From NCBI GenBank assembly GCA_963676835.2, contig CAXXFF010000002.1, positions 864,001-928,000 on the forward strand: a stretch of 64,000 nucleotides of DNA. The letters run 5' to 3'. Numbering within the stretch: position 1 is the first letter of the stretch; the number at the start of each line of letters is the position of its first letter. Below are positions 23,835 through 46,381 of the stretch, piece after piece. Under the pieces are notes generated by a model, which ran no database searches, was not told where the DNA came from, and was given only the letters and a program-made list of their open reading frames with translations. A program made the translations under genes and the position numbers. The stretch is from Marispirochaeta sp. GTDB lineage: Bacteria > Spirochaetota > Spirochaetia > JC444 > Marispirochaetaceae.

Positions 23835-25019
23835 ATGGCGTATATTGAACTGGGCACCCGGTCCCATAAACGGGCAACCCTGGGAATCAGCCTGGGAAGC
23901 ATGATTACCTTTGCAATTATGTACAGCCCCCAGCCCCTGATAAGCGTATTTTCCGCCGAGTATGGAGTTGCTCCGGCAACTGCGAGCCTTTCTGTTTCGC
24001 TGACAACCTTCGGGCTGGCGGGGGCGCTCTTTTTTATTGCCATTATAACCAATGTCTTTTCCCGTAAAGGCTTAATGTGCTTTTCCCTGATTGTATCTTC
24101 CAGCTTGACTCTGCTCTCCGCCTTTATGATGGATTTTACCGTCTTTCTGGGATTCCGCCTTTTAATCGGCATTGTTGTAGCCGGTTTTCCCTCTGTTGCC
24201 ATGGCCTATCTGTACGAGGAGTTTTCGCCTGAGGATCTGGGCAAGGTTATCGGGTATTATGTCTCCGGTACCGCATTGGGAGGACTCTCCGGGCGGATAG
24301 TGGTTGGCGCCCTGTCTGATTTTATGAGTTTTCACCTGGCCTTTGCCATTCAGGGCGTGCTCAGTCTTGCAGTGAGTATCTGGTTTCTGGTCTCCCTTCC
24401 GCCTTCAAAGAATCATGTGCAGAAAAAAATAACCCGCAAAGAGTGGTTTGCAGGTATTTCAGCTGCCTTCGGCAGTAAAGGCCTGGTGCCGGTATATCTG
24501 GTGGGATTTCTTATTATGGGTTCCTATATCAGTATCCTTAACTATATCGGCTACCCCCTCACTTCTGCTCCCTATAACCTCAGTCAGACTCTGTTCGGTT
24601 TTCTCTTTGTGGTGAACCTCTTCGGGTCATACAGCTCGGTGCTTTTCGGCAAGCTGGCAGACCGCTATCCAAGGCCCATGGTTATGTCCATAGCTCTGGG
24701 GGTAATTGCTCTGGGGGTTGGTGCAACCCTGCATCCCTGGCTTCCCGTCAAGATTGCTGGCGTAGCAGCAGTTGCTTTCGGCCTTTTTGCCGGGCACTCC
24801 GTTGCCAGCGGCTGGACCGGGATACTGGCTCCAAAAGAGTACAAGGGGCAGGCTTCCGCTTTTTATCTGCTCTTCTACTACGCCGGATCAAGTATTCTCG
24901 GCTGGGCTGGTGGCTTGTTTTTCCGGCAGTATGACTGGCTTGGACTCACTCTTTATATATTTACCCTCTTAAGCATGACTCTGGGGATTACCTTTCTCTT
25001 TCTGAGAAACAGAAGATAA
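23835..25019 (+). CDS. MFS transporter (YnfM-like)
   Basis: FAIMYSPQPL, AMAYLYEE, YVSGTALGGLSGR and YLLFYYAGSS; about 12 TM helices. Confidence 0.85.
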   Translation: MAYIELGTRSHKRATLGISLGSMITFAIMYSPQPLISVFSAEYGVAPATASLSVSLTTFGLAGALFFIAIITNVFSRKGLMCFSLIVSSSLTLLSAFMMDFTVFLGFRLLIGIVVAGFPSVAMAYLYEEFSPEDLGKVIGYYVSGTALGGLSGRIVVGALSDFMSFHLAFAIQGVLSLAVSIWFLVSLPPSKNHVQKKITRKEWFAGISAAFGSKGLVPVYLVGFLIMGSYISILNYIGYPLTSAPYNLSQTLFGFLFVVNLFGSYSSVLFGKLADRYPRPMVMSIALGVIALGVGATLHPWLPVKIAGVAAVAFGLFAGHSVASGWTGILAPKEYKGQASAFYLLFYYAGSSILGWAGGLFFRQYDWLGLTLYIFTLLSMTLGITFLFLRNRR

Positions 25020-25022: not shown

Positions 25023-25034
25023 GGACAGGTGTCC
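25023..25034 (+). promoter_or_regulatory. GGACA-N2-TGTCC box B upstream of yjjI
   Basis: Perfect GGACA-GG-TGTCC; TATAGT 24 nt downstream (25059). Confidence 0.75.
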
Positions 25035-25126
25035 TTTCATCTGACTGTTTTACTTGCCTATAGTTAAAAGTAATGCAGAATCTAATGGAGAAAAAAGGTG
25101 CATCCACAGAAGGGAGGATAGTGCGT

Positions 25127-26641
25127 ATGAATGAAGCGCTGAAAATTGTAACATCCCGAAACTTTACAACTCGACAGAAAATGACCCAGCTTGCCGCAGT
25201 GGGAGAAAACTCTGTTTCTCCCATGAAGGTACCTGAAAAGTTCCGCTTTTATGCAGATAAGGGTGCACTATGTGATATGAACGAGGGGAATGCGCCCTAT
25301 CGCCCGCGTTATGTTCTGCCGGATTATCAGAAGTTTCTCGATCAGGGCAGCAGTTTTCTGCGTCTGGACCCGCCGAAGGATCTGGATGAGGCCCTCAATG
25401 CTTTAAGTATTATCTATCATCATGTTCCCTCAATTACCGGCATGCCTGTATATGTGGGAGCCCTCGATACTCTGATTGATCCCTTTCTTGAGGGTGTTGA
25501 TGATGCGGAAGCAGCCAAAAAAATCAGTCTGTTTCTCAATTTTATCGACCGGACCATTCCCAGCGGATACTGTCACGCCAATATCGGGCCGGAAGATACC
25601 AGGGCTGGCAGGATTATCCTTTCCCTTGCTCCGGAACTGAAAAACGCTGTACCCAACATTACCATGAAGTATGATCCTGACATTACTCCCGATGATTTTG
25701 CTGAATCCGCCATGGGTTCTGCCATGGTCTGTGCCGGGCCTGCGGTATGTAATCATGCTGTGCATAAAGAGACCTATACCGGCAGGTACGGGGTTGTCAG
25801 CTGTTATAATATTCTCCCCGAAGCAGGCGGTGCCTATTGTCTTTCCCGTATCGTGCTCCCCCGTCTTGCGGAGATGGCGGAAAACCATTCACATTTTCTC
25901 TCCACTCTTCTCCCGGATGCGCTGAATGCTCTCGGAGAATATATGAATGAGCGTATCCGCTTCTTTGTTGAGGAGTCGGGATTTTTCGAAAGTTCCTTTC
26001 TTGTAGATGAAGGGTTAATCAGTACAGACCGTTTTATAGGTATGTTCGGTCTTGCAGGGCTTGCGGACTGTGTAAATATCCTGCTTGGAAGAGAAATGGG
26101 CTACGGCGGCGATGAAGAAGGGGATAATCTGGCGGAAACCATTCTGTCGGAAATTGCGGTTTTTGCCGCGAATTTTGAGGCTCCCTATTCGCCGGTATCC
26201 GGAGGGCATCATATGCTCCACGCTCAGGCGGGGCTTGCCACCGATGAAGGGGTTTCTCCTGGAATCCGCATCCGGGTAGGAGAAGAGCCGGAATCTCTTT
26301 TCAAGCATCTGCGGCACAGTGCCAGAATGCACAAATATATCCCCACCGGCTGTTCGGATATTTTTCCTGTGGAAAGTACCGCCGGTAAAAACCCTGCGGC
26401 CCTGGTTGATGTGATCAAAGGGGCATTTTCCGTGGGCGATAAATACCTCAGCTTCTACGCTTCCGATGGAGATCTGGTGCGTATTACCGGCTACCTTGCC
26501 AAGCGCAGTGAGATTGACCGCTTTAAGGACGGCACAGCTGTTCTGCACGACACAGTTGCAGGAGCGTCACTGAACTATAAAAATAACCGGGTGGGCCAGC
26601 GTAAAGTCCGTACACAGAATGATCTCGGCTCCGGTAAATAA
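25127..26641 (+). CDS. yjjI: YjjI-family glycyl radical enzyme
   Basis: CDMNEGNAPYRPRY, YHHVPSIT, HANIGP, SCYN (Cys loop) and C-terminal DLVRITGY (Gly loop). Start at ATG 25127 after GGAGG. Confidence 0.88.
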   Translation: MNEALKIVTSRNFTTRQKMTQLAAVGENSVSPMKVPEKFRFYADKGALCDMNEGNAPYRPRYVLPDYQKFLDQGSSFLRLDPPKDLDEALNALSIIYHHVPSITGMPVYVGALDTLIDPFLEGVDDAEAAKKISLFLNFIDRTIPSGYCHANIGPEDTRAGRIILSLAPELKNAVPNITMKYDPDITPDDFAESAMGSAMVCAGPAVCNHAVHKETYTGRYGVVSCYNILPEAGGAYCLSRIVLPRLAEMAENHSHFLSTLLPDALNALGEYMNERIRFFVEESGFFESSFLVDEGLISTDRFIGMFGLAGLADCVNILLGREMGYGGDEEGDNLAETILSEIAVFAANFEAPYSPVSGGHHMLHAQAGLATDEGVSPGIRIRVGEEPESLFKHLRHSARMHKYIPTGCSDIFPVESTAGKNPAALVDVIKGAFSVGDKYLSFYASDGDLVRITGYLAKRSEIDRFKDGTAVLHDTVAGASLNYKNNRVGQRKVRTQNDLGSGK

Positions 26642-27455
26642 GATCATACCGTTCAGTCTGGTCGATGGCCCGGGCAGCAGAACGGCAGTTTTTCTGCAGG
26701 GCTGCAATCTTATGTGTTCCTATTGCCATAATCCTGAAACCAGAACAATCTGCAACAACTGCGGTATCTGTGTTTCTCACTGCCCTTCCGGGGCTTTGGA
26801 GATGCAGGAGGGCACCGTTCTCTGGAACGAAGATCTTTGCACCGGCTGTGACCGCTGTATTTCCCTCTGTCACAACTCAGCATCTCCACGGGTTCGCCGT
26901 ATGAGTTCCGGTGAAGTGCTTGCCCTTGTGGAGGAGAACATTCCCTTTATCCGGGGAATTACTGTTTCCGGCGGTGAATGTACCCTCTATCCGGATTTTC
27001 TGGTTGAACTGTTTTCCGGAGCCCGTCAGTTTGGTCTGGGGACCCTGATAGACAGCAACGGAACGGTGGACTTTACCCTGTACCCCCATCTGTTTGAGAA
27101 CCTCTGTGACGGGGTTATGCTGGATGTTAAGAGCTGGGACGGAGATCTCTTTTTCTCTCTTACCCGGGGAAGCAATTCCATGATTCGCAGAAATCTCCGT
27201 TATCTTGCAGATATTCAGAAGCTTGAGGAGATCCGGATTGTATGTATTCAGGAGCTTACGGATCCCGAACGGGCGGTTGAAGAGATAGGCGCTGCCATAG
27301 GCGATAAGCTGCATCAGCAGCGATTGAAACTGATTCAGTACAGAGATCACGGGGTTAAGGATCTGATTAACGCCCGGGGATATTCTATTCCTCAGTTGGA
27401 ATCCCTTGCCCTGCGTGCATCTGATATGGGATTCGGCGAGGTTATTATACAGTAG
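26619..27455 (+). CDS. yjjW: YjjW-family glycyl radical activating enzyme
   Basis: DGPGSR, GCNLMCSYCHNPE (CxxxCxxC), two ferredoxin CxxCxxCxxxC motifs and GITVSGGEC. Confidence 0.9.
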   Translation: MISAPVNKIIPFSLVDGPGSRTAVFLQGCNLMCSYCHNPETRTICNNCGICVSHCPSGALEMQEGTVLWNEDLCTGCDRCISLCHNSASPRVRRMSSGEVLALVEENIPFIRGITVSGGECTLYPDFLVELFSGARQFGLGTLIDSNGTVDFTLYPHLFENLCDGVMLDVKSWDGDLFFSLTRGSNSMIRRNLRYLADIQKLEEIRIVCIQELTDPERAVEEIGAAIGDKLHQQRLKLIQYRDHGVKDLINARGYSIPQLESLALRASDMGFGEVIIQ

Positions 27456-27469
27456 AGGAGCATATTGCA

Positions 27470-28288
27470 ATGATCCATTGTCAGGCGAACTTTTTTTCCA
27501 AAATACTTATGAACCATGTTGATGTGGATGTGCTTCTGCCGTCCATGCCGGATAACGATATTCTGTTTAATGATCTGAGTACGGTTTATCCCAAAGGCTG
27601 CGAGCATCCGGTGCTGTATCTCCTGCATGGTGCGCTTGAGGATCATTCCAGCTGGCTCCGGCAGACCTGTGTGGAACGCTATGCAGAGCATGCCGGTATT
27701 GCGGTGGTAATGGCTTCCGCCCAGAACGGGTTTTATGCAAACGCAAGGCAGGGACATGCCTATTTCGATTTCTTTACAAAAGAGCTTCCCGATTTTATAG
27801 CCTATACCTTCCCGGTTTCCCGCCGCAGGGAGGATACCTTTGTGGCCGGCGCCTCAATGGGCGGCTATGGTGCAGCGAAACTGGCTCTCAGCTGTCCTGA
27901 GTCCTATTCGTCCTTCGGCTGCTTTTCCGGTGCTGTTGATCCGGAGAAGCTTGAAAGCAAAATGGTAAGTCAGGGTTATGATGTTTTTCGCTACGATCTT
28001 ATTTTCGGCGGGGCATCCAAGGTTACCGGGAGCAGTGATGACCTTAAAGTACTGGCTGCATCCCTTGCAGATTCCGACATAAAGCCCGATGCCTTTGTTA
28101 CCTGCGGTCTGGAAGAGGCCAACAATTATGAGATGGTCAGTGAGTTCCGCGATGTTCTGGTCAAATCGGGTTTTCAGGTTCGTTTTACCGATGGGCACGG
28201 AGAGCATGACTGGGATTACTGGGAACGGTGTATTGCCCTCTACATGGAACATCTGGCCCATATTATTGATCAGGGAAAGGCTGTATGA
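27470..28288 (+). CDS. Alpha/beta-hydrolase esterase (tributyrin esterase / S-formylglutathione hydrolase-like)
   Basis: VLYLLHG, GASMGGYGA nucleophile elbow and GEHDWDYW. Confidence 0.85.
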   Translation: MIHCQANFFSKILMNHVDVDVLLPSMPDNDILFNDLSTVYPKGCEHPVLYLLHGALEDHSSWLRQTCVERYAEHAGIAVVMASAQNGFYANARQGHAYFDFFTKELPDFIAYTFPVSRRREDTFVAGASMGGYGAAKLALSCPESYSSFGCFSGAVDPEKLESKMVSQGYDVFRYDLIFGGASKVTGSSDDLKVLAASLADSDIKPDAFVTCGLEEANNYEMVSEFRDVLVKSGFQVRFTDGHGEHDWDYWERCIALYMEHLAHIIDQGKAV

Positions 28289-29601
28289 AAGAAGATCTTG
28301 TGAAAAAGGGCAAAATGACAGAAGTTTCCATTCCCTGGCTTGATGGAACCCGAACGATTGAAATTGATGAAGCGCTTATCAGGTTTATAGCCACCCCCAA
28401 TAATCCTGCTGCAGTTTCTGATCCCGATGCCGAGATTCTTGATGCCCTTAGAAATCCTGTAAAGTCTCCCGGCCTTAAAACCCTGATCGGGGATCCTGAA
28501 GGGAAGAAAGTTGCAGTTGTTATTGATGACAACACCAGGGTAACACCGGTGGAACGGGTTCTTACCGTTCTTGTCAAGGAGCTCGAAGTTCTGGGTGTCA
28601 GTCCCGAACAGGTTGTGGTGATCCTCGCCCTGGGCAGTCACCGTTATATGACCCCCGATGAAATCCGCAAGCGTGTAGGCGACTGGTGTTATGAACGGGT
28701 GTCCGTAATTAATCATGAATACAAGGATCCTGCAGAACTGGTGGATCTGGGAAAAACATCTCAGGGGACTCCGGTAATCATAAACAGGGTTTTCTATGAG
28801 AGTGATGTACGGCTCTGTATCGGGAATATAATTCCCCAGTTTATTGCCGGATGGTCCGGAGGGGCCAAGATCATTCAGCCGGGAATATCCGGAGCGGATA
28901 CAACTGCCCGGGTGCATCTGAACGGTTCTCTTACCTGGCCGAAGCGTCTTGGAAATGCCGAGAATGATATCCGCCATGATATGGAGGAGATTGCCGAACG
29001 GGCGGGGCTTCAGTTTATTATCAATACCATTCTGAACCTTGATGAAGATATCTATCGGGTTGTCGCCGGGGATGTTGTATCTGCCCACAGAAAAGGGGTG
29101 GAGTATGCAAAAGAGATCTACCAGCTGATTATCCCTGAACAGGCAGATATTGTTATTGCCGGCTCCTATCCGGCCAACAAGGATATGTGGCAGGCCGATA
29201 AAGGACTTGCAGCAGCGGTTCTGACGGTTAAACCCGGTAAGACGGTAATCTGGGCTGCTCCCTGTGTGGAGGGTGTAAGCCCGGAGCACCCCATCCTGCT
29301 TGAGCTTAAAGATACCCCGCCCCGGAAGGTATTTGATATGTGTGAGAACGGAGAAATCGATGATGTGGTGGGGGCCACCGCCCACATTATGATCGGGGTT
29401 ATGCGCGAAATGGCCAATGTGATCCTGGTGAGCGACGGAGTGTCCCGGAAGGAGTGTGAATCCATGGGAATATCCTGGGCTCCTAACCTCGAAACAGCTC
29501 TTAAGGATGCCCGGGCACGGGAAGGGGAAGCTGCCGGTATAGGTGTTATCACCCATGGTGCAGACCTGGCACCTCTGGTGGAGAACTCTTCTGTAAACTG
29601 A
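28285..29601 (+). CDS. LarA-family (nickel-pincer cofactor) racemase/epimerase homologue
   Basis: DDNTR, ALGSHR, AGWSGGAK, GDVVSAH and YP...D..QA.K motifs. Confidence 0.82.
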   Translation: MKEDLVKKGKMTEVSIPWLDGTRTIEIDEALIRFIATPNNPAAVSDPDAEILDALRNPVKSPGLKTLIGDPEGKKVAVVIDDNTRVTPVERVLTVLVKELEVLGVSPEQVVVILALGSHRYMTPDEIRKRVGDWCYERVSVINHEYKDPAELVDLGKTSQGTPVIINRVFYESDVRLCIGNIIPQFIAGWSGGAKIIQPGISGADTTARVHLNGSLTWPKRLGNAENDIRHDMEEIAERAGLQFIINTILNLDEDIYRVVAGDVVSAHRKGVEYAKEIYQLIIPEQADIVIAGSYPANKDMWQADKGLAAAVLTVKPGKTVIWAAPCVEGVSPEHPILLELKDTPPRKVFDMCENGEIDDVVGATAHIMIGVMREMANVILVSDGVSRKECESMGISWAPNLETALKDARAREGEAAGIGVITHGADLAPLVENSSVN

Positions 29602-29664: not shown

Positions 29665-29676
29665 GGTCATTTGTCC
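29665..29676 (+). promoter_or_regulatory. GGACA-N2-TGTCC box C upstream of the TudS-like operon
   Basis: GGTCA-TT-TGTCC followed by T-run; TACTAT 23 nt downstream (29700). Confidence 0.72.
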
Positions 29677-29773
29677 TTTTTATTAAAAATCTAAGTGTCT
29701 ACTATTTCTTCAGAATCCGGCGGGAAGTCTTTACAGGACAGCCGCCGGAGGTCAGTGAGAGGAGGGATAGGGA

Positions 29774-30349
29774 ATGTCTTTGCATAAAGAGGATGCCAGA
29801 AGCGGCAAAGTAGTATTTGTCGCTAATTGTCTGCTGAATGCCAACAACAAAGTCCTTGAGCAGGCCCGCTACAAGGGAATGTTTTCCGAGGTGGTGGCTT
29901 CTCTGGACAAGCTTGGTCTGGGAGTAATGCAGATGCCCTGTCCCGAAACCCTCCACCTGGGTAACCAGCGCTGGTGGACCAGCAGAAACCTTTATGACAA
30001 CCCGGGATACCGGAAGCTCTGCCGGAAGATTGCGGACCAGATGGCTGACTATCTGGAAAGCTACCGCAATATCGGCTATCAGGTTCCGGCAATCCTAACC
30101 TGTGACGGTTCACCTTCCTGCGGCATTACCTGCTCCAGCTACTGCGAAGACTGGGGCGGCCGGCCCAAGGAGATACCCCGGACTCTTGTAAATAAACCGG
30201 GTGTTTTTATTGAAGAGTTGATGAGTGTAGTCAGTGAACGGGGACTTGAGTGTCCCTATATCTATGGTCTGAAAATGGATGACCATGGCGAGTCAAACGA
30301 ACAGATTATCAGGGATTTTGAAGACTTTCTGAAGAAAGAACTCAAGTGA
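29774..30349 (+). CDS. TudS/DUF523-related putative thiopyrimidine desulfidase
   Basis: NCLLN, MPCPE and GSPSCG Cys motifs typical of the [4Fe-4S] DUF523-like family. Confidence 0.72.
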   Translation: MSLHKEDARSGKVVFVANCLLNANNKVLEQARYKGMFSEVVASLDKLGLGVMQMPCPETLHLGNQRWWTSRNLYDNPGYRKLCRKIADQMADYLESYRNIGYQVPAILTCDGSPSCGITCSSYCEDWGGRPKEIPRTLVNKPGVFIEELMSVVSERGLECPYIYGLKMDDHGESNEQIIRDFEDFLKKELK

Positions 30350-30381
30350 AATCCTGATTTTAATAAGCATGGGAAACTAAA

Positions 30382-31581
30382 ATGAGCAACTTACTTAAGA
30401 CTAATTTTGCAGGTGTAGATTTACCAAACCCTTTTGTGCTGGCATCAGCGCCTCCGGCAACCAACCCGGAGATTATAGCCCGCAGTTTCGACCGCGGCTG
30501 GGGCGGGGCAATTATAAAAACTGTACAGTATACTCCCAGATGGACCAAAATAAACGTTACTCCCCGAATCCGTGCGGTTAAGGACAAGGGAAAAATCCTT
30601 GGCTTCACCAACTTTGAAATCGGCAGCCCCAAGACTCTGGATCAGTGGGCCGAAGGTATCCGCTGGCTGAAGGAGCGCTTTCCGGACCATGCGGTCTTCG
30701 GCAGTCTTATGCACACCGATGTTCTTAACGAGCATGAATGGCGGGAGGTTACCCGGATCTTTGATCAGGCCGGGGTGGACGGATTCGAGCTGAACCTTTC
30801 CTGCTCCCATGGACAGGCTGAGAGCGGTAACGGTGCAGCCCTGGGTGCCAATGCGGATATGGTGAAAATGGTAACCAGCTGGGTACGGGAAGAGACCAAA
30901 AAGCCGGTTATGCCGAAGCTCACCGCCCTTACCTTTGATGTTCCCGGAAAAGGGCTTGCCGCAAAAGAGGCCGGAGCAGATGCTCTTGCAGCTATTAACA
31001 CCTTAAGTTCCCTGCCGGGAATTGATATCGATACCTTCGCCCCCTACAGTACTGTAAACGGCCAGAGTGCATTTCAGGGACTGAGCGGAAGGGCTATCCG
31101 TCCCATTGCTCTTCGCTGTGTAGCCCAGCTTGCTGCAGCTACCGGACTGCCTATTTCCGCAACCGGCGGAGCCTACACCTGGCGGGACGCGGTTGAGTTT
31201 ATCCTCGCCGGAGCATCCACCATTCAGGTCTGTTCCGCTGTTATGGAATACGGTTACGGAATTATCGACAGTCTCAAAGAAGGGCTGGTGGATTACATGG
31301 AGACCAAGGGCTTCAAGTCCATCGATGATTTCTGCGGAAAAGCTCTGCCGAACATTACCAAACAGATAGAGCTCAGCCGGGATGTACGTCTTGCGGCGAA
31401 AGTTGATGCAGAACGCTGTGTGGGCTGCGGGCGCTGTGTAGACAGCTGTGCTGATAACGGTTACGGCGCAATCTGCATGGACGGAAAAAAGGCTGTGATA
31501 GATCCGGCAAAATGTGACGGCTGCGGACTCTGTACTCAGATATGTCCTGCATCCTGCATCACTATGACCGGAGCTAACTGA
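30382..31581 (+). CDS. preA: Dihydropyrimidine dehydrogenase PreA-like subunit with C-terminal ferredoxin domain
   Basis: NPFVLASAP, GWGGAIIKT, ELNLSCSHG, AINT, GLSG.AIRPIAL and two CxxCxxCxxxC motifs. Confidence 0.82.
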   Translation: MSNLLKTNFAGVDLPNPFVLASAPPATNPEIIARSFDRGWGGAIIKTVQYTPRWTKINVTPRIRAVKDKGKILGFTNFEIGSPKTLDQWAEGIRWLKERFPDHAVFGSLMHTDVLNEHEWREVTRIFDQAGVDGFELNLSCSHGQAESGNGAALGANADMVKMVTSWVREETKKPVMPKLTALTFDVPGKGLAAKEAGADALAAINTLSSLPGIDIDTFAPYSTVNGQSAFQGLSGRAIRPIALRCVAQLAAATGLPISATGGAYTWRDAVEFILAGASTIQVCSAVMEYGYGIIDSLKEGLVDYMETKGFKSIDDFCGKALPNITKQIELSRDVRLAAKVDAERCVGCGRCVDSCADNGYGAICMDGKKAVIDPAKCDGCGLCTQICPASCITMTGAN

Positions 31582-31589
31582 GGCGGTTT

Positions 31590-32987
31590 ATGAGAAGCGG
31601 CAACGATCTGAATCTTCTCAACGGAACTCTTATTTTTCCTGAAGCTGAAAGAACAGGAAGCATAGGCATTGCCGACGGGCTGATTACTCAGGTTGTAGAG
31701 AATGCAGAGGACCTGCTGCCCTCTTCCCGGGTAATTGATGCGGAAGGTATGCTTATCTTCCCGGGATTGATCGACTCCCATGTACACGTCCGGGGTGCCG
31801 GTTTCAGCTACCGGGAGGATTTCTCAAGCGGCTCCAGAGCTGCTGCTTCATCCGGTATTACCACCATTATGGAGATGCCCGGAACGGATATTCCCGCCAA
31901 TACTGCCGAACGCTTTCTGACACGTCTTGAAGAGGTGCGCCGGGACGGTGGAATCAGCTTTGCCATGTACGGTGCCGCCGGGGCGGACAACCTGAATGAG
32001 ATTGAGGGAATTGCCGCCGCTGGAGCCGTTGGATTCAAGACTTTTCAGATGGCGCCGGTCCCCGGAAGGGAGACCGAGTTCTACGGAATGTGTGCCGAAA
32101 CCTATGACGATCTGGTGGCTATTATGCAGCGGATTGCCCCCACCGGGCTTTCTCTTACTGTGCACTGCGAAAGCCAGGAGATAATCAACAGCAAAATGGC
32201 GGAGATCCGTGCCGCCGGCGGAAAAGACCTTATCGCATTCTGTGATTCACGGCCGCCGGAAGCCGAGACGGCTTCTGTCGATCTGGTTATTCGGGCGGCG
32301 GAGAAAACGGGCTGCAGAACGGTAATTGCCCACACAAGTACTCCCGAAGCGGTGGAAATGGTTCACGAGGCCAGGCTTCGGGGAGTGGAAGTCTACGTGG
32401 AAAGCTGTGCTCAGTACCTGAGCTTTGACAAAGAGCAGATGGCACCTCATGGAGTCTTTGCCCGGATGAAACCTCCTTTTCGGGACCGGGGCAGGGTTGA
32501 AAAACTGGCGGCTCTCTATAGTGCCGGAAAAATCGATATAACCGGAAGTGATCATGCTCCCCACACCCTGGAAGAGAAAACCAGGAATGGAGTGGATGAT
32601 ATATGGACCACCACCGACGGCCTTGCGGGACTTGAGATGACTTTTCCCATGCTCCTGAAACTGGTGGAGCAGGGAAAAATTTCCTACCGGTCCATTGCCG
32701 CATCGGCCAGTCAGAATACTGCGGAGTTTTTCAATCTTCCCTCCAAGGGGCGTATTGAAACAGGCAGGGATGCGGATCTGGTTCTGGTGTCTCTGGAAGA
32801 GAGAGAAACCGCTTTTGACAGAAACAGACTTCTGTGCAAATGCAGGGATGTCTGCCGAATCTACGAAGGCTTTTCCATGAAGCACAAAATTAACACAGTT
32901 ATAATCCACGGGAATGTTGCCCATTCTCATGGACAAACAGCAGACCGGAAGGGCTGCGCACAAATACTATTTCCGACTCAGAATTGA
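31590..32987 (+). CDS. Cyclic amidohydrolase (dihydroorotase/allantoinase family)
   Basis: IDSHVHVR, GITT..EMP, GFK, VHCE, AH, KPP.R, GSDHAPH and KGRI..G.DAD. Confidence 0.85.
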   Translation: MRSGNDLNLLNGTLIFPEAERTGSIGIADGLITQVVENAEDLLPSSRVIDAEGMLIFPGLIDSHVHVRGAGFSYREDFSSGSRAAASSGITTIMEMPGTDIPANTAERFLTRLEEVRRDGGISFAMYGAAGADNLNEIEGIAAAGAVGFKTFQMAPVPGRETEFYGMCAETYDDLVAIMQRIAPTGLSLTVHCESQEIINSKMAEIRAAGGKDLIAFCDSRPPEAETASVDLVIRAAEKTGCRTVIAHTSTPEAVEMVHEARLRGVEVYVESCAQYLSFDKEQMAPHGVFARMKPPFRDRGRVEKLAALYSAGKIDITGSDHAPHTLEEKTRNGVDDIWTTTDGLAGLEMTFPMLLKLVEQGKISYRSIAASASQNTAEFFNLPSKGRIETGRDADLVLVSLEERETAFDRNRLLCKCRDVCRIYEGFSMKHKINTVIIHGNVAHSHGQTADRKGCAQILFPTQN

Positions 32988-32999
32988 GCGGAGGAGGAT

Positions 33000-34391
33000 A
33001 TGAATATGGGGAAAACGATTGCGGAGCAGATAGCTTCGCTCTCCACATCACTTCGGTATGAAGATCTGCCGAAGGAAGCTGTTGATCACGCACGTATGCT
33101 GACATTGGATGTTCTTGCCTCCATGGTGGGAACCCGCAATGAAACGTCCAGCAAGATTGCCCGTGAAGTGGCCGAAGAGATGGCTGGTCCCGAAGAGGGA
33201 ACTATCGTCGGTTCTTCCAAAAAAGTGGCTCTGCCCAACGCGGCATTTGCCAATGCAATTCAGTGTTATGGACTGGATTTTGTGGACGATCATAATGAGT
33301 CCAACTCCCATCCTTCTCCCGCAACTTATCCCACAGCAATGGCACTGTGTGAAAACATGCACAAAAGCGGTAAGGAGTTCATCGAGGCTGTTGCCCTCGG
33401 TAACGAGGTTGTCTGCCGCATGGGAGCTGCCTACCTCGGTGATATGTACTACCAGGGATTCCACCCCACCAGTACCTGCGGCGCCATCGGAGCAGCGGTA
33501 ACCTCCGCCAAGCTGATGGGACTCAACGAGCAGGAGACTGCTTATGTTCAGGGTCTTGCGGGAAGTATGGTTTCAGGACTTATGTCATGGAACTCCCAGG
33601 GCTCCTGGTCAAAGCGCTACCAGGCCGGACACCCTGCGATGAACGCAATTATTTGCGCGCGGATGATTCAGAAGGGATTTAACGGACCCACCGATATCTT
33701 TGAAGGTAAAGATGGACTTCTCCATGCTTACTCCTTCAAGGATCACTATGATGCCTCAATCCTGACCAACGATCTTGGCAAAGAATGGATCTTCGCTACC
33801 TCCAGTATCAAGGTTTACCCCTGCTGCCGCTACTCTGCGGGACACCTCGATGCCTGTCTTGAGATCGTAGATAAATACGCACCAAAGCATGAGGATATCG
33901 AAAAGATCAATATCCGCTCTTCCAAGTACACCATGCGTCTTCTTGCTGAACCCCGGAAATGGAAACCCGGCAACCAGGTAGACCTCCAGTTCAGCATGCC
34001 TTTCCAGGCTGCAATTGCTTTTATTAACGGTAAAATTACCGTTGATGAGTTTGATGCCAAATACATCGGCGACCCCGAAGTTGACAGACTGATTGCTGCG
34101 ACCACAGTTGTGGAGGACGAAGAGTTCGAGCGCCGCTATCCTGAGCACTACTCCAGTGCGGTTGAGATCACCATGAAAGACGGCACAAAATACAGTGCAG
34201 TCATTGATGATCCCAAGGGAGACTGGCGGAATCCGGTAACCTACGAAGATGTTGTGGAGAAATTCCGCATCCTCGCAGACCGTACCTACGGAGACCCCGC
34301 ACGGACCCAGAAGATCATTGACTGGGTTGGAAAGCTTGATGAGCAGACCGACATGGCCGAACTGATGGCCCTCGTGAATGACGTAAAATAA
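33000..34391 (+). CDS. MmgE/PrpD-family protein
   Basis: AAFANA...LDF.DDH, SHP, GFHPT and KVYPCC motifs. Confidence 0.88.
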   Translation: MNMGKTIAEQIASLSTSLRYEDLPKEAVDHARMLTLDVLASMVGTRNETSSKIAREVAEEMAGPEEGTIVGSSKKVALPNAAFANAIQCYGLDFVDDHNESNSHPSPATYPTAMALCENMHKSGKEFIEAVALGNEVVCRMGAAYLGDMYYQGFHPTSTCGAIGAAVTSAKLMGLNEQETAYVQGLAGSMVSGLMSWNSQGSWSKRYQAGHPAMNAIICARMIQKGFNGPTDIFEGKDGLLHAYSFKDHYDASILTNDLGKEWIFATSSIKVYPCCRYSAGHLDACLEIVDKYAPKHEDIEKINIRSSKYTMRLLAEPRKWKPGNQVDLQFSMPFQAAIAFINGKITVDEFDAKYIGDPEVDRLIAATTVVEDEEFERRYPEHYSSAVEITMKDGTKYSAVIDDPKGDWRNPVTYEDVVEKFRILADRTYGDPARTQKIIDWVGKLDEQTDMAELMALVNDVK

Positions 34392-34400
34392 GGATTATAT

Positions 34401-35627
34401 ATGAACACAATTAAGTCCAACCCCGAGCGCATGCAGAGAAGGCTGGATGAGATTGCCGCAATTACAGAAGAGCCGGGTAGAATTACCCGGCGTACTTATT
34501 CTCAGGCCTGGGTGGAATCAACCCGCTATGTTACCGCCGAGATGGAAGCTGTCGGTATGACTGTACGGATGGATACCTTCGGTAATGTTATCGGTACCTA
34601 TAATCCCGGCAACAGTACAGAAAAACCCATCGGTATCGGATCTCACATAGACAGTGTGGTTGATGCCGGCGCCTACGACGGCGTTGCAGGAGTGGTTGTC
34701 GGCCTTGAGCTTATATCCATGATGCATGAGAACGGCATTGTTCCCGCATTTCCCATAGAGATTCTCGCTACCGCCGAAGAGGAAGGCGCTGTCTGTCAAC
34801 GCGGTTATTTCGGCGCACGCTTTATGGTAGGCGACATGACCATCGAAGAACTTCTCTCCTACAAGGATGCCAACGGCAAGAACCTTGAGGTGCTGCGAAA
34901 AGAGAGCGGCATTTTCGAGGATATTCCCTTCGGTACTGACAACGGCTGGGGTAAAGGCTACTATCAGCGTTTTTATGAAGTGCACGTCGAGCAGGGCGGA
35001 GTTCTTGAAGCCGCTGACTGCGACATCGGTATTGTAAAAGGTGTTGTAGGTATCGGTCGTCTCTTTATCGACTTCTTCGGCGATTCCTGCCATGCAGGTC
35101 CCACGGTTATGAAGGGCCGCAAGGATTCCATGGTTGCTGCATCAGATTTTATTCTCAAGTCCTGGGAAACCGGACAGAAACATTCCGGACATGCTGCTGC
35201 AACGGTTGCCCGTATTCATAACTATCCCAATATCCATAATGTTATCGCCGGAAAAACCTCGGTTGTATTTGACTACCGGGCGGATGATGACAGCCTTGGT
35301 GCAGAGATAGCGGAAGAGATGAAGGCATATGCCCTTTCTCTGAAAGAGAAATACGGTATAGGTGTCGAGATTATCCGCGAGGTCTACACCCCGGTAAAAC
35401 TCTTTGCAGAAAACCTGGTAAGTGAGATCCGGGCTCTTGATATGCCTAACTCGATGGACCTCTTCAGCTGGGCAGGTCACGATGCCAAGGCTTATGCCGA
35501 GGTGACAGATACCGCCATGATCTTCATGCCCAGTATCGGTGGTAAGAGTCACAGCCCCGATGAGTTTACCGACATAAAGAGCTTTCAGCTGGTGTGTGAC
35601 AATATAATTAATCTCTTTATAAATTAA
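34401..35627 (+). CDS. M20 Zn amidohydrolase (N-carbamoyl-amino-acid hydrolase / beta-ureidopropionase-like)
   Basis: GSHIDSV, GAYDG, EEEG, EVHVEQG, HAG, AGHDA and SHSPDE. Confidence 0.88.
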   Translation: MNTIKSNPERMQRRLDEIAAITEEPGRITRRTYSQAWVESTRYVTAEMEAVGMTVRMDTFGNVIGTYNPGNSTEKPIGIGSHIDSVVDAGAYDGVAGVVVGLELISMMHENGIVPAFPIEILATAEEEGAVCQRGYFGARFMVGDMTIEELLSYKDANGKNLEVLRKESGIFEDIPFGTDNGWGKGYYQRFYEVHVEQGGVLEAADCDIGIVKGVVGIGRLFIDFFGDSCHAGPTVMKGRKDSMVAASDFILKSWETGQKHSGHAAATVARIHNYPNIHNVIAGKTSVVFDYRADDDSLGAEIAEEMKAYALSLKEKYGIGVEIIREVYTPVKLFAENLVSEIRALDMPNSMDLFSWAGHDAKAYAEVTDTAMIFMPSIGGKSHSPDEFTDIKSFQLVCDNIINLFIN

Positions 35628-36068: not shown

Positions 36069-36093
36069 TGATTTGAGATGTGGGGGAGAGAAA

Positions 36094-39349: not shown

Positions 39350-40372
39350 TTATTTTGTAGCTTCTTCCCAGATCTCTGTGGTGTAGAGCATATCCAGGGG
39401 AAGTTTCTCGGAGATAATGCCGTATTTTGCAGCAATATCTACGGTGTTCTGAATCTTGTCTGCATCGAAGTAGCCGATTTTCGCAGGATCAAATCCTTCG
39501 GGGCTTACTACAGTAGCAATCTTCTGAGACATACCGATCTGGTGCTCTTTTGTAGTGCTGGCCTGGTCGAGGCTTTTCCAGATGATGTCGGCAGCTGCAA
39601 GGGGATCTGCACAAGCATCGGCCCATCCCTTGATGGAAGCACGGAGGAACTTAACTGCAGTTTCCTTGTTTTCCGCAAGCCACTCGGAGTTAACCACAAG
39701 GCAGTCCTCGAGCATTCCGGTTCCTTCCTTGTTAACATCGATGATGTTCAGTTCGCTCTCAGGGTAACCGGACTCAACCAGTACCATGATTTCGTTGTAG
39801 ATCATACCGGAAGCTACATCGAGCTTGCCGCTGATAAGACCGTCCATGGTGTAGTCCTGTTTTGCCATAACTACGTCCTTGTCCTTGTCCATGCCGTATT
39901 TCTCGAGCATTGCATAGATGGGGTAGTCAGCTTTTCCGAGCCATGCACCGATAGTCTTGCCCTGGAGATCGGGAACGCTTTCGATTCCGTTCTTCTTGAA
40001 GGAAACAAGGCGGAAAGAGCTCTGCTGGAAGGTCTGTGCAATAGATACAAGGGGGAAGCCCTTTTCTACGAAGGGAAGCAGACCGTACATATTGATGATA
40101 CCGAAATCAGCTGCACCAACGGAAACCTGGTTTGCAGGGATAATGTCGGGACCGCCGGGAAGGAGTTTTACATCCAGTCCTTCTTCAGCATAATAACCTT
40201 TTTCAAGGGCTACATAGTAACCGTTGAACTGTGCCTGGGGCAGCCATTTCAGCTGCAGGCGTACTTCTACGGGGCCGTCGGCGCTTTCCTGGGAGCCATT
40301 GGCAAAAACAGATGTGGTTGCTGCCATTAGCATAGCAGCGGCGAACAGAAGAAACATGATTTTCTTGCTCAT
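39350..40372 (-). CDS. NMT1/THI5-like ABC substrate-binding protein (pyrimidine/nucleobase type)
   Basis: LQLKWLPQAQFNGYYVA..KGYY.EEGLDV, PGGPD and YNE motifs; signal peptide. Confidence 0.85.
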   Translation of the reverse strand: MSKKIMFLLFAAAMLMAATTSVFANGSQESADGPVEVRLQLKWLPQAQFNGYYVALEKGYYAEEGLDVKLLPGGPDIIPANQVSVGAADFGIINMYGLLPFVEKGFPLVSIAQTFQQSSFRLVSFKKNGIESVPDLQGKTIGAWLGKADYPIYAMLEKYGMDKDKDVVMAKQDYTMDGLISGKLDVASGMIYNEIMVLVESGYPESELNIIDVNKEGTGMLEDCLVVNSEWLAENKETAVKFLRASIKGWADACADPLAAADIIWKSLDQASTTKEHQIGMSQKIATVVSPEGFDPAKIGYFDADKIQNTVDIAAKYGIISEKLPLDMLYTTEIWEEATK

Positions 40373-40396
40373 AGTGTCATCCTCTCTCTTGATGAT

Positions 40397-41167
40397 TTAT
40401 CTTTGTGATGCATGCCACTTAATGGCATAGCGCTCAACCAAAATTATTAGGGTGTACATGGTTATTCCGAAGAATGCCGCTGTACCGATATATGCCCACG
40501 CCCGGGCCATCTGGGCCTGTTTCAGGGCGGTGGACAGTTCAAAGCCGATGCCGGCGAAGGAGGAGAAAAACTCACTACAGATCGCCGCAATCATGCTTGA
40601 TGTTGTACTTATTTTCAGCGCGGTAAGAATATTGGGAACCGCATTGGGCAGCCTGAGGTAAAAGAAGATCTCCTTCTTTGTGGCTGCGTAGGATTTCATA
40701 AGATCCAGGGAGAATGCCTTGAATACATTGAATCCGCGGTAGGCGTTTATTGCCATGGCTGCCATGGTAAAGACGGTTACAATGGCTATTTTTGAACCCA
40801 TTCCCATGCCGAACCAGTTATTCATTACCGGCGCCAGAGCGATGATGGGGATTGCATTGAATGCGGAAATAAGGGTAAGACCGCCGATTCCCCACACCGG
40901 GAAAAGGGTAGCAATTACTGCAATCATAAATCCCATACTGGAACCGAGCACCAGACCGATAAGTGCTTCCGCAACAGTAACGAGGCTGTGCCGCAGAATA
41001 ACGTCATACTCCTCGAAAAAGGTGGTCAGGATTTCCGACGGCACGGGTAGCTGGAACTTCCGCAGGTGCATCATCAGGTGTACTCCGCCTTTTTCCCACC
41101 AGAGGAAAAAGAGAACGCCGAAGAGTACGGGCAACAGAATATCGAAGAATTTTTCTACCTTGTTCAT
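40397..41167 (-). CDS. ABC permease (SsuC/TauC type)
   Basis: LP.PS.I, P.IALAP and LRLPNAVP motifs. Confidence 0.88.
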   Translation of the reverse strand: MNKVEKFFDILLPVLFGVLFFLWWEKGGVHLMMHLRKFQLPVPSEILTTFFEEYDVILRHSLVTVAEALIGLVLGSSMGFMIAVIATLFPVWGIGGLTLISAFNAIPIIALAPVMNNWFGMGMGSKIAIVTVFTMAAMAINAYRGFNVFKAFSLDLMKSYAATKKEIFFYLRLPNAVPNILTALKISTTSSMIAAICSEFFSSFAGIGFELSTALKQAQMARAWAYIGTAAFFGITMYTLIILVERYAIKWHASQR

Positions 41168-41169
41168 AA

Positions 41170-41976
41170 TCAGTTACCTCCCTCTTTTTTGGACAGTGCG
41201 CTTTCCCATGGCACCAGCAGTTTCTCAAGCAGCAGAACAAAGCCGAAAAAGCTCATCCCTAAAAGGGCTGCCATAATAACCGATGCCCAGAACAGATGGG
41301 TTCCGTTGGCACCGTAGTAGAGGGTGTAGAGAATCTTTACGCCGATGCCCTTGTCGGTACCTAACATTTCCACCAGAATCGCTGCAGTAATGGAACGGGG
41401 GGCAGCGATTTTCAGACCCACAAAGAGGTTGGGCAGGGTCGAAGGCAGCATCAGCTTGGTGAATACTTCCGGCTTGGTGGCAGCGTAGGAGTACATCAGG
41501 TCGATCTGATCTTTATCCACGCTCTTAAGCCCGCTCAGGGTGTTCACCGTAACAGGAAAGAAGGTAATAAAGGCGGCAATAATAACCCTGGCTGCATCGG
41601 GGCTGCGTACGATACTCCAGATAATCGGTGCCAGACCGAGGATCGGTATCATCTGGGAGATAATCACGTAGGGAAAAGTTACCTTCTCTAGGATCCGGTT
41701 GTAGCTCATGAAAACTGCAACCAGAAATCCGAAACATCCGCCAATCAGAAAGCCGAAGAATGCCTTGGACACGGTAACCAGTCCGGAATCAAGCAGAGAC
41801 CAGAGGTTTGCGATGAATGTGGCAACCACGGTGTGCAGAAAGGGAAGTTTCTGTTTTGCCATGGTGTCATGGATTACATCCTGAAGCAGCCAGGCTCCGG
41901 CTTCCCAGAGCAGAATAATTGCTGCAATCCACACCAGGGTGGTCAGCCATTTCTGGCTGCGGGCATTAATGACCAT
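41170..41976 (-). CDS. ABC permease (SsuC/TauC type)
   Basis: Q.IP...LAP, FFPVTVN..SGL and LP.LF.GLK. Start at 41976 after GGAGG. Confidence 0.88.
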   Translation of the reverse strand: MVINARSQKWLTTLVWIAAIILLWEAGAWLLQDVIHDTMAKQKLPFLHTVVATFIANLWSLLDSGLVTVSKAFFGFLIGGCFGFLVAVFMSYNRILEKVTFPYVIISQMIPILGLAPIIWSIVRSPDAARVIIAAFITFFPVTVNTLSGLKSVDKDQIDLMYSYAATKPEVFTKLMLPSTLPNLFVGLKIAAPRSITAAILVEMLGTDKGIGVKILYTLYYGANGTHLFWASVIMAALLGMSFFGFVLLLEKLLVPWESALSKKEGGN

Positions 41977-42784
41977 TCTCACCCTCCTCAAAGCTGTCAC
42001 GGATTTTTGCAACAAGAGAGTAAAACTCGGGACTATCCCGCATTTCAGCGGTTCTCGGCCGGGGCAGATCAATATCAATTACTGCAGAAAGACGTCCGGG
42101 GTGAGCGGAGAGAACAAATACCTTTTCCGAAAGAAATACTGACTCGGGAATGTTGTGGGTAACGAACAGGATTGTCTTTCCTGTCTTCTGCCAGATCTTC
42201 AGAAGGTCCTCGTTCAGCCGTTCCCGGGTAAACTCGTCCAGAGCGGAGAAAGGTTCGTCCATAAGAAGAATTTCAGGATCCATTGCCAGTGCCCGGGCAA
42301 TACCGACGCGCTGCTGCATTCCACCGGAAAGCTGGTAGGGATGCATATCGGCGCAATGGCTTAATCCCACGAGATCAAGCATTTCCATGGCACGCTCTTC
42401 CTGCTCCTGTTTCTTCCACTTGAGAAGTTCCAGGGGCAGGCAGATATTCTTTTTTACTGTTCGCCAGTCGTACAATACGGGATTCTGGAATACGATTCCA
42501 TACTGGTGCTCCAGTCGGATTTGCCGGGGAGTTTTACCGGAAATAGTAACAATCCCGGAGGTCGGCTTCAGCAGATCTGCGATGATTCTCAGGATGGTGG
42601 TCTTGCCGCAGCCGGAAGGGCCGAGGAGGCTGATGAATTCGCCATTGAGAATATCAAGACTTACACCGTTGAGAGCGGTTGTTACATCCCCATTATTGTT
42701 TGTGTACTTCATTTCAATATTTTTAAGGTGAATGTCGTCTTGTGCTTTCTCTTTTTTCATGGGTTCTGTGCTAACTGTGCTCAT
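41966..42784 (-). CDS. ABC ATP-binding protein (SsuB/TauB type)
   Basis: GPSGCGKT, LSGGMQQR, LMDEPFSALD and FVTH. Confidence 0.93.
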   Translation of the reverse strand: MSTVSTEPMKKEKAQDDIHLKNIEMKYTNNNGDVTTALNGVSLDILNGEFISLLGPSGCGKTTILRIIADLLKPTSGIVTISGKTPRQIRLEHQYGIVFQNPVLYDWRTVKKNICLPLELLKWKKQEQEERAMEMLDLVGLSHCADMHPYQLSGGMQQRVGIARALAMDPEILLMDEPFSALDEFTRERLNEDLLKIWQKTGKTILFVTHNIPESVFLSEKVFVLSAHPGRLSAVIDIDLPRPRTAEMRDSPEFYSLVAKIRDSFEEGENGH

Positions 42785-43718
42785 AACCTGACCTCGTGCT
42801 GAGATTTTTCCACTCCGGGCTGGAGAGGATTTCCTTGTACATTTTTACGTATAAATCCGGACGCCAGTCGGGCTCTCCGATTTTTTCATTATGTTTGAAC
42901 AGGTGGGTAAAGGTGTTGTGCTCCGAAAGGCTTAAATCGATGGATGCACTGTACATCTCATGGGAATCGCTCCCTTCTGCGTAAAAGGGGAAGCCGGCGA
43001 AGTATTTCACATCGCCGATGTTGCCTGCGGGGCCTGCTATACTGCTGCCGCCGATAAAGTAATTCTCCCTGTCCCATCCGGTGAGATTGGCGGAAGCAAC
43101 GTATATGGGGCTGGTAATTACCAGGGATTCCAGCTGGGTCTGAACCATTCTGCCTGGAACTGCTGATGCGCAGCAGGCAGTAGGGTTTATAAAAAGTCTG
43201 CAGCCTTTAGCCGATGCCCAGCGGACTATTTCGGGGAAGGCATAAAAGTCGTAACAGATCCCAATTCCCATCGGTCCCCAGGGGGTATCAAATACAGTCG
43301 GGTAATCACCTCTGGTGGCCCAGGTGGGTTCGTTCTCCGGGAGATGAAGCTTGCGGCAGCTGCTTATTGATCCGTCGGGAGAACAGATTGCTGCCGAGTT
43401 GTACACGGTGGCGGGATTATTTTTATCCTGCTCGGGCAGGCCGAAAACAACGTAGATGCCGTATTCTGCTGCCAGTTTTGAAACCGCAAGAGTTGATTCG
43501 CCCGGTACGGTTTCTGCCAGCCGGACATGCATTTTACTGTTGAACTCAACTTCCGGTTCCGGATCGTAGCCGGACAGAGCCAGTTCGGGAAGGATAATCA
43601 TATCGGAACCAGATCTGGCGGCAGCTTTCACATAACTGCAGATTCGTTCCAGATTGACTTCCCTGTTACCCCAGATTGCTCTGAAATTAACTACCGAAAG
43701 GTTGATCACATGTTCCAT
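42771..43718 (-). CDS. Carbon-nitrogen hydrolase (nitrilase superfamily)
   Basis: E-K-C triad: LPELA, RKLHL and ICYD. Start at 43718 after GGAGG. Confidence 0.88.
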   Translation of the reverse strand: MEHVINLSVVNFRAIWGNREVNLERICSYVKAAARSGSDMIILPELALSGYDPEPEVEFNSKMHVRLAETVPGESTLAVSKLAAEYGIYVVFGLPEQDKNNPATVYNSAAICSPDGSISSCRKLHLPENEPTWATRGDYPTVFDTPWGPMGIGICYDFYAFPEIVRWASAKGCRLFINPTACCASAVPGRMVQTQLESLVITSPIYVASANLTGWDRENYFIGGSSIAGPAGNIGDVKYFAGFPFYAEGSDSHEMYSASIDLSLSEHNTFTHLFKHNEKIGEPDWRPDLYVKMYKEILSSPEWKNLSTRSGYEHS

Positions 43719-43814
43719 ACGGACCCGGTTCCTCCAAGCATACATAAAGGTAGCCTTCCCGGCATTAACCTTCATTCAGGAACCGATACTATGGATTTGG
43801 GATTGCATTCAAAA

Positions 43815-43826
43815 GGACATGTGTCC
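43815..43826 (-). promoter_or_regulatory. GGACA-N2-TGTCC box D upstream of the nitrilase-ABC operon
   Basis: Perfect GGACA-TG-TGTCC; minus-strand TAGTAT (43791-43786) 23 nt away. Confidence 0.75.
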
Positions 43827-45578: not shown

Positions 45579-45590
45579 GGCCATTTGACC
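45579..45590. promoter_or_regulatory. GGACA-N2-TGTCC box E in the divergent udp/ECF region
   Basis: AAAAA-GGCCA-TT-TGACC-TTTTT, with TACTTT 23 nt right (+) and TATACT 24 nt left (-). Confidence 0.7.
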
Positions 45591-46287: not shown

Positions 46288-46381
46288 GCTTCTGCGGTAG
46301 TAGGTGTAAGGAGCATATTGATGTACTCGGACACGGCAATTAAAGGAGTTCCAGGTAGATGGACTGCAGGGACGGTGAAAT

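Follow-up and report, generated by a model that had tools for sequence, protein, structure and literature searches.

Background

The closest described relatives of the system treated here are YjjI and YjjW of Escherichia coli (b4380 and b4379; TIGR04040 and TIGR04041, PF11230), a glycyl radical enzyme (GRE) and the activase encoded next to it. A pair of the same family, with the same invariant residues, is encoded together with an esterase and a LarA-superfamily protein at positions 25127 to 29601 of a 64-kb stretch (the window) of the 4.43-Mb genome of Marispirochaeta sp. (G000; contig CAXXFF010000002.1, 864,001 to 928,000) and is the subject of this study. Relatives of the genome at the phylum level include Spirochaetota-type loci, and genomes, contigs and loci are cited by our own G, C and L numbers. 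According to passages of the respective papers, E. coli yjjI is listed with FNR-activated operons (PMC3688515), a 2011 study that predicted an NrdD-like fold for YjjI also placed the gene in a cluster with narG (PMC3228777), and a 2026 preprint, in which YjjI is called uncharacterised, reports labelling of its Gly465 by a radical probe. This glycine aligns to Gly455 of the window protein. The E. coli locus is FNR-linked and faces deoCABD but, unlike the window, has no esterase, Crp-type box or Arg-pocket uridine phosphorylase.

Class III ribonucleotide reductase (RNR, NrdD) has a ten-stranded barrel, a finger-loop Cys, a Gly loop and a Tyr after the radical Gly in common with YjjI, whereas YjjI is of about 500 amino acids (aa) and lacks the second Cys, the Asn, the Glu, the NxN flap, the Zn domain and the ATP cone. 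The GRE arylacetate decarboxylases (HPAD, IAD, PAD and AAD) catalyze redox-neutral loss of CO2 from aryl-CH2-COOH (passages of PMC13450708), a reaction type like that proposed below for YjjI. They are PFL-like with other active sites, whereas YjjI is NrdD-like, much shorter and carries CxN instead of the HPAD-type Cys-x-Glu; it does not appear to be a member of that class, and the shared chemistry would be convergent. Uridine phosphorylase (Udp; TIGR01718; Streptococcus pyogenes-type, PDB 3qpb) shares its ribose, phosphate and Gln166 contacts with the Udp of the window, in which the C5 pocket is His/Cys/Arg and not Phe/Ile/Val. The LarA superfamily (lactate and malate racemases) shares both Pfam domains and most cofactor and catalytic positions with the window LarA, which falls below the cut-offs of the named racemase subfamilies and has Gln185 in place of the second of the two catalytic His.

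YjjI is an ordinary member of a known family without assigned function. No paper giving a YjjI function, a nucleoside link or a C5-acid reading was found in the literature open to searching, which excludes subscription papers and preprint supplements. The passages of PMC9068703, PMC4287617, PMC6643234 and PMC13552136 give no YjjI function, and those of a June 2026 GRE review contain neither 'yjj' nor 'nucleoside' (PMC13450708). Here we tentatively favour the reading that the yjjI operon is one arm of a likely Crp-activated system for anaerobic scavenging of modified uridines, in which YjjI decarboxylates tRNA-derived 5-carboxymethyluracil to thymine and CO2. More guardedly still, we put forward the narrower reading that YjjI may be an NrdD-derived glycyl radical decarboxylase and the surrounding island a complete anaerobic pathway for mcm5U (5-methoxycarbonylmethyluridine), ncm5U, mcm5s2U and mchm5U with a dedicated Arg-pocket Udp. 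If true, this would be a new reaction on a new GRE branch and the first non-reductase chemistry on an RNR-like GRE scaffold, would let anaerobes recover ribose and thymine from tRNA and, should all family members share one function, would also explain what E. coli YjjI does. How modified nucleosides are degraded further than the nucleoside itself is described as little known in passages of PMC6278475.

Classification and fold of YjjI

The operon comprises four genes:

25127..26641, + strand: yjjI, a 504-aa glycyl radical enzyme, its ATG start preceded by a GGAGG ribosome site
26619..27455, + strand: yjjW, the radical-SAM activase, with a 23-nucleotide (nt) overlap with yjjI
27470..28288, + strand: esterase, an EstA/tributyrin-esterase-type alpha/beta hydrolase (PF00756), after a 14-nt gap
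28285..29601, + strand: larA, a LarA-superfamily gene, with a 4-nt overlap with the esterase gene

Their coupling behind an exact copy of a DNA box (box B), reported in a first-pass annotation of this DNA, was confirmed by these overlaps and the short gap. YjjI and YjjW belong to TIGR04040 (626.8 bits, cut-off 498.3) and TIGR04041 (349.6 bits, cut-off 250.2), respectively. YjjW has a CxxxCxxC motif (residues 29-36) followed by a pair of ferredoxin-type motifs (45-55, 74-84). YjjI contains SCYN at 225-228 and RITGY at 452-456, and the finger-loop Cys226 and radical-site Gly455 were present in all 190 full-length YjjI sequences. The polar residues R61, Y62, H150, N228, R241, H365, Q367, D373 and R381 are invariant and the same family-wide, E. 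coli included, while Y148, D314 and A368, near active-site strands, are the window clade's own.

The predicted model of YjjI (predicted local distance difference test 94.1) is a ten-stranded GRE barrel with a finger-loop Cys and a C-terminal Gly loop. Its best structural match was class III RNR (Foldseek E 7.8e-17; Z 30.3, root-mean-square deviation 2.9 over 465 residues), PFL-type enzymes reached Z of about 24-25, and hhalign matched the YjjI profile to E. coli NrdD with a probability of 99.9. When the YjjI profile was searched against the sequences of solved structures, no match fell below E 0.29, and an Atlas search returned just YjjI clusters and one NrdD cluster.

On this fold YjjI could be taken for a minimal class III ribonucleotide or ribonucleoside reductase, but the active site makes this very improbable. 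In the profile alignment, NrdD Cys175 corresponds to Tyr62 (Tyr in 190/190), Asn174 to Arg61, Asn405 to Ala/Ser/Gly and the Glu of TPSE to Ile/Leu; strand 6 bears no Asn or third Cys, and neither the NxN flap, the active-site Glu, the C-terminal Zn domain nor the NrdD His motif was found in it. The second Cys, the Asn and the flap are given as requirements of NrdD in passages of PMC11226230. An NrdD-like gene distinct from yjjI is present on C3 of the genome. The Cys loop of YjjI is C-Y/F-N in 190/190 sequences and not the CxE that the listed GRE eliminases and isomerases keep (passages of PMC13450708). Because the second Cys, Asn and Glu of NrdD and the CxE are all gone, YjjI is judged from its sequence to be neither a reductase nor a standard eliminase. 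By the same profile alignment, three invariant Arg and two His could hold an anion.

A second YjjI family in Fusobacteriota was considered and rejected, as the weak TIGR04040 hits were short NrdD proteins. These class III RNRs of 519-534 aa (L200:6126-7724, L201:6023-7582, L202:6096-7685, L207 and L208) lack the ATP cone, keep the second Cys and the Zn motifs and form a size bridge between NrdD and YjjI. Two tandem YjjI copies were seen in L062, and yjjI is seemingly split into two open reading frames (ORFs) in L039 and L095.

An Arg-pocket uridine phosphorylase linked to yjjI

44717..45481, - strand: udp, uridine phosphorylase of 254 aa, 18 kb from yjjI

The window Udp belongs to TIGR01718 (280.8 bits, cut-off 280.3) and is the only Udp/PNP-family match in the genome. 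Its five best matches among our loci were the Udp of L023, L039, L032, L037 and L043, all of them esterase-yjjI loci; the three remaining esterase-yjjI loci are short and show no Udp. In an alignment to E. coli Udp, the window protein and these five carry His, Cys and Arg at the positions of E. coli Phe7, Ile220 and Val221 (His7, Cys215 and Arg216 in the window), and the C5 pocket is not the hydrophobic one. Passages of two structural papers state that Ile220, Val221 and Pro229 enclose the C5 substituent (PMC2939078) and that a C5-benzyl group stacks with the N-terminal Phe (PMC2664818). The Arg is present in 101 of the 120 nearest homologues, 96 of these with His7 and 88 with Cys220, and His8, Arg30, Arg48, Arg91, Thr94, Gln166, Glu196, Met197 and Glu198 (the ribose, phosphate and Gln166 contacts) were unchanged in 101/101.

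In this clade the Arg-type protein travels with yjjI. In 301 genomes of one order, 15 Udp hits were found and only the yjjI-linked copy was Arg-type; its genome, G966, carries both the Arg paralogue and an ordinary Udp. A single new Arg-type Udp was found in 350 genomes of another family, in G1577, where it adjoins esterase, yczE, BMP-type ABC, gntR, crp, yjjI, yjjW and deoB genes; this genome is a relative and counts as one blind check, not as an independent origin. The match tables of Udp and YjjI share 14 equal-sized contigs outside their own genus, all Arg-type, equal size suggesting but not proving that the contig is the same or that the genes are adjacent.

The tRNA wobble nucleosides mcm5U, mcm5s2U, mchm5U and mcmo5U bear an acidic C5 chain with an ester. 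Taken together, the basic C5 pocket, the unchanged ribose site and the esterase point to a substrate of the mcm5U type, a uridine whose C5 chain is acidic and carries an ester. This reading may be specific to the clade described below and may not extend to E. coli. The first-pass annotation had proposed a nucleoside-derived substrate, either a modified ribose or a base side chain, with a hydroxy-acid or ester intermediate downstream. The nucleoside reading appears largely right; of the two options a base side chain is preferred for this clade, with the ribose and phosphate residues of Udp kept and its C5 pocket basic, and the ester would probably lie upstream of YjjI rather than downstream. 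2'-O-Methyl nucleosides were demoted as substrates on the altered C5 pocket and unchanged ribose contacts of the linked Udp.

Proposed route from modified uridine to thymine

An mcm5U-type nucleoside would be imported by the energy-coupling factor (ECF) or ABC systems, and its ester would be hydrolysed by the esterase to 5-carboxymethyluridine (cm5U), from which phosphorolysis by the Arg216-containing Udp would yield 5-carboxymethyluracil and ribose 1-phosphate. YjjW would install the radical on Gly455, Cys226 would become a thiyl radical, and this radical would drive redox-neutral decarboxylation in the manner of the arylacetate decarboxylases. Thymine could then be salvaged, or degraded via PreA, a hydantoinase and a carbamoylase. 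A minimal module of esterase, Udp, YjjI/YjjW, importer and deoB would be sufficient for this route. In this genus, the TudS-like desulfidase, the C-N hydrolase and the LarA-like protein would widen the intake by feeding 2-thio (mcm5s2U), amide (ncm5U) and hydroxy (mchm5U) variants into the same acid, and the PreA operon would degrade the product. The genes concerned are as follows:

29774-30349, + strand: TudS-related desulfidase, CD3072 family, first gene of operon 29774..35627
30382-31581, + strand: PreA-type dihydropyrimidine dehydrogenase, same operon
31590-32987, + strand: cyclic amidohydrolase, same operon
33000-34391, + strand: MmgE/PrpD, same operon
34401-35627, + strand: M20 carbamoylase, last gene of the operon
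39350..43775, - strand: operon of a C-N hydrolase (nitrilase family, ORF 42771-43775) and then an NMT1/THI5-type ABC importer
45667..48839, + strand: ECF importer, its S component CD3073-like (124 bits, under the cut-off of 180)

The PreA-type dehydrogenase stands in its operon without a PreT partner and may be ferredoxin-linked.

The Arg pocket and the esterase would suit any ester-bearing C5 acid, so YjjI might act on another C5-acidic uracil or by chemistry other than decarboxylation, e.g., on uracil-5-oxyacetate from bacterial mcmo5U, or by cleaving a hydroxy-acid chain after LarA-type epimerisation. The LarA subfamily shares three equal-sized contigs outside the genus with the Udp list, one of which is also in the YjjI list. 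We nevertheless hold such reactions to be improbable, as the minimal module lacks the LarA subfamily and products such as 5-methoxyuracil would offer no obvious gain.

Phylogeny of YjjI and distribution of the esterase

A YjjI tree of 118 rows was built, from which loci with split yjjI were left out. The window YjjI falls in an eight-row clade with seven Bacillota proteins (SH-aLRT 99), apart from other spirochaete copies. The same esterase lies within the locus at all seven Bacillota clade loci and at L039. The window esterase, with the motifs GASMG and GEHDW, is 54-59% identical to the full-length Bacillota clade esterases; the L029 copy is a fragment at a contig end. Generic esterases (35-41% identity) at nine loci of a 401-genome Bacillota sample were accompanied by neither yjjI nor udp over a distance of about 1.5 kb, and a different esterase (27% identical) lies ahead of yjjI in two Fusobacteriota genomes. 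Because the window yjjI belongs to a Bacillota clade with the same esterase and Udp subfamily, the module of yjjI, esterase and Udp subfamily was likely inherited as a unit, and the placement of yjjI in a nucleoside regulon, earlier called independent, is only partly so. YjjI exceeds the family cut-off in three of 41 related genomes, including G000 and one of five others of the genus; the gene order of the island is kept in the sister species G527.

The module of esterase and Arg-pocket Udp was not found in the literature searched. It makes the question of YjjI function directly testable, and what was a vague hint from nucleoside neighbours is narrowed to a short list of substrates, to be tested first on the oxygen-stable Udp paralogue and the esterase.

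The LarA homologue

The larA product contains PF09861 and PF21113 and is a member of the superfamily; larC, larE and three further LarA-like genes are present in the genome. It scored below every LarAH subfamily cut-off (best 311.7 versus 500 bits). Compared in what we take to be the L. plantarum residue numbering, its second catalytic His is replaced by Gln185 and the Asp/Arg/His/Lys cofactor and catalytic positions are mostly kept. It belongs to a distinct subfamily of 39 clusters at 52% or above (the next at 44%), in 21 of which the second His is Gln, and which is unnamed among the LarA subfamilies. LarA is accessory to the YjjI module, since its subfamily was not found in any of eight other clade genomes. 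Both this His-to-Gln subfamily and the Arg-pocket Udp are testable variants in their own right.

A shared DNA box and its candidate activator

Box B of the first-pass annotation was taken as GGACAGGTGTCC at 25023-25034. The sites and the candidate activator gene are:

25023..25034, + strand: box B, a GGACA-N2-TGTCC palindrome, centred at about -42.5 from the inferred transcription start
25059..25064, + strand: -10 hexamer TATAGT, 24 nt downstream of box B, with no consensus -35 called
29665..29705, + strand: second box (one mismatch) with -10 TACTAT at 29700-29705, ahead of the desulfidase/PreA operon
43786..43826, - strand: third box (exact, 43815-43826) with -10 TAGTAT at 43786-43791, nitrilase/ABC operon
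45579..45590, no strand assigned: fourth box, in the gap that separates udp from the divergent ECF genes, one -10 per side
43927..44637, - strand: Crp/Fnr-family regulator, homologue of the regulator at 21 other yjjI loci

A general promoter scan called zero -35/-10 pairs upstream of yjjI. The exact 12-mer occurs in five copies in the genome, all intergenic and two inside the window. By count alone the box is weak: at up to one mismatch three matches were found against 1.48 in shuffles, 19 of 100 shuffles being equally high, and the 16-mer gave seven matches against 2.95, with 2 of 100 shuffles as high. When the genome was scanned with a matrix trained on 23 sites exclusively from other genomes, four of the top five sites lay within the island (43815, 25023, 29665 and 45579), the yjjI box ranking third genome-wide with 20.3 bits. 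Each of the four island boxes stands 23-24 nt ahead of a -10 (TAnnnT), and the boxes of yjjI and at 29665 are conserved with their spacers in G527. Class II Crp sites are palindromes centred near -41.5, and the spacing to the -10 centres the box near -42 at all four sites. The box is taken as real because of this position and conservation and not because of its count.

Presence of the box tracks the Crp homologue across yjjI loci. A box with at most one mismatch just upstream of yjjI was found at 6 of 22 loci with the homologue versus 2 of 64 without, and a widened box with a -10 at 22-25 nt at 18/22 versus 1/65, the latter comparison being partly circular as the widened pattern was derived from earlier hits, the window included. 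The Crp-family protein encoded at 43927..44637 is likely the box-binding activator. Given the shared box, its spacing and its conservation, yjjI, udp and the genes for the importers and for ring catabolism are also likely to be activated together through this predicted site.

The top-scoring box of the genome, which is outside the window (G000:C3:741336; L231), follows a dehydratase-like gene and precedes genes of the EamA, thiamine-binding and NMT1-type ABC kinds, all labelled by eye; it is conserved in G527, there with a -10 at the right distance, and may mark an extra regulon member. In L244 (G565:C59), an exact GGACA-N2-TGTCC box separates a second Crp paralogue from a divergent amidohydrolase gene, so loci lacking yjjI are served by this regulator family too. 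TGACA-N2-TGTCA was tried as a regulon finder in 10 genomes and rejected: it also stood before unrelated genes, a reversed-pattern control gave similar results in several genomes, and no substrate clue emerged.

Neighborhoods of yjjI across genomes and competing readings

For close homologues, the best 80 of at least 588 GTDB matches were used, giving 79 loci. A locus was labelled nucleoside-positive if any of the following lay within 7.5 kb: a nucleoside importer, a phosphorylase, a deaminase, a pseudouridine glycosidase, a hydrolase, deoB or deoC; on the tree the window received this label via its box, no such gene lying within 7.5 kb of its yjjI. Nucleoside genes were found near yjjI at 38 of the 79 loci, kin among which are not independent, and at 23 of the 45 loci of 15 kb or more, against a background of 111/3824 ORFs (2.9%) in G000 scored with six of the nucleoside families. 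On the 118-row tree the label needs 19 changes, at least 14 of them forced by supported branches. These figures, and the box shared with udp, ECF, TudS-like and reductive pyrimidine genes, support the nucleoside-derived substrate proposed in the first-pass annotation, and the E. coli pair does lie beside deoCABD, in divergent orientation. The association seen in close homologues is not family-wide: among Fusobacteriota, for instance, just 4 of 17 loci have such genes.

YjjI could instead serve general anaerobic metabolism (e.g., the nitrogen role predicted from co-expression) and be a mere passenger in nucleoside loci, a reading with which the FNR activation and narG clustering in E. coli would agree. 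Nucleoside genes occurred at only 4 of 80 gammaproteobacterial-type metagenome loci (all deo), 47 of which (among L103-L182) have a convergent LysR gene after yjjW, and most other spirochaete loci lack them (2 of 7 positive). We rate this reading as quite improbable, since the 38/79 count among close homologues far exceeds background, the label changed many times on the tree, and several unrelated importer types, together with the shared box, link yjjI to nucleoside genes. The effector of the LysR protein could reveal the substrate in that branch.

The main rival, rated only somewhat below the favoured reading, is that YjjI acts on the sugar: hydrogen abstraction by the thiyl radical from ribose, ribose phosphate or 2'-O-methyl ribose, with loss of water or methanol, would give a deoxy-keto sugar or a deoxyribonolactone that the esterase opens. 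The class III RNR fold would suit such chemistry, and phosphate could be bound by the three Arg. Gene neighbours across the family show no preference for a particular base (Udp/DeoD, PsuK/PsuG, nucleoside hydrolase and kinase, DeoB, DeoC) and converge family-wide on ribose phosphate; in G1577 deoB is the gene right after yjjW, and E. coli yjjI faces deoCABD. Little is known about what becomes of 2'-O-methyl nucleosides, and aerobic E. coli auxotrophs served to select hydrolases of 2'-O-methyluridine, implying no unaided aerobic use of it (passages of PMC6278475). Against this, YjjI has neither the CxE base of all eliminases and isomerases listed in the passages of PMC13450708 nor the His motif and NxN flap of NrdD, a change confined to the C5 pocket of the linked Udp, with Glu198 and Met197 kept, is left unexplained, and an enzyme acting on ribose in general would hardly be tied to a rare Udp paralogue.

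Several points weigh against decarboxylation of a modified uracil. The GRE decarboxylases known so far are of the PFL type, whereas YjjI resembles NrdD, which acts on ribose, more closely (Z 30.3 versus about 24-25). The assignment of invariant residues to the YjjI cavity comes solely from alignment, and the window branch is long (0.61) and flagged in the tree. Ten YjjI genomes from outside the clade yielded no Arg-type Udp, and three of the ten had no Udp hit at all. The fit of all the accessory enzymes rests on this genus, because the TudS-like family exceeds its cut-off in 0/5 clade genomes and the LarA subfamily was not found in the 10 other YjjI genomes tested, eight of them clade members. 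Finally, other yjjI loci contain genes for pseudouridine and purine breakdown, nucleoside hydrolase and deoB/deoC, whose shared product is ribose phosphate.

Pseudouridine kinase and glycosidase genes lie near yjjI-yjjW in several branches (L017, L058, L060, L064, L079, L080, L093 and L098), consistent with scavenging of modified RNA nucleosides. A yjjI-linked nucleoside hydrolase was rejected as a substrate clue, the one tested matching general hydrolases only. The gene after yjjW encodes an AlkD-like DNA alkylation repair protein at three loci of Fusobacteriota (L183, L184 and L199) and a SpoU methyltransferase at four of spirochaete type (L068, L069, L082 and L088); both arrangements probably reflect lineage synteny.

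Other features of the window

23835..25019, + strand: MFS transporter, behind a two-mismatch box at 23760-23771 that scores below the matrix cut-off, with -10 TATGGT

Its product, which we take to be YnfM-like, is possibly an exporter. The island is interrupted by a low-GC insertion (35787-39185), in place of which G527 has other genes; it carries what we assume to be a HigB/HigA-like pair and a nucleotidyltransferase/HEPN-like pair, and also a lipoprotein with an FGE-sulfatase domain. At 126-15483 the window contains a cluster of sugar-acid type without a box, comprising a 2-hydroxyacid dehydrogenase, a sigma-54 activator, two GntP permeases, an HpcH aldolase and GntR and RpiR regulators.

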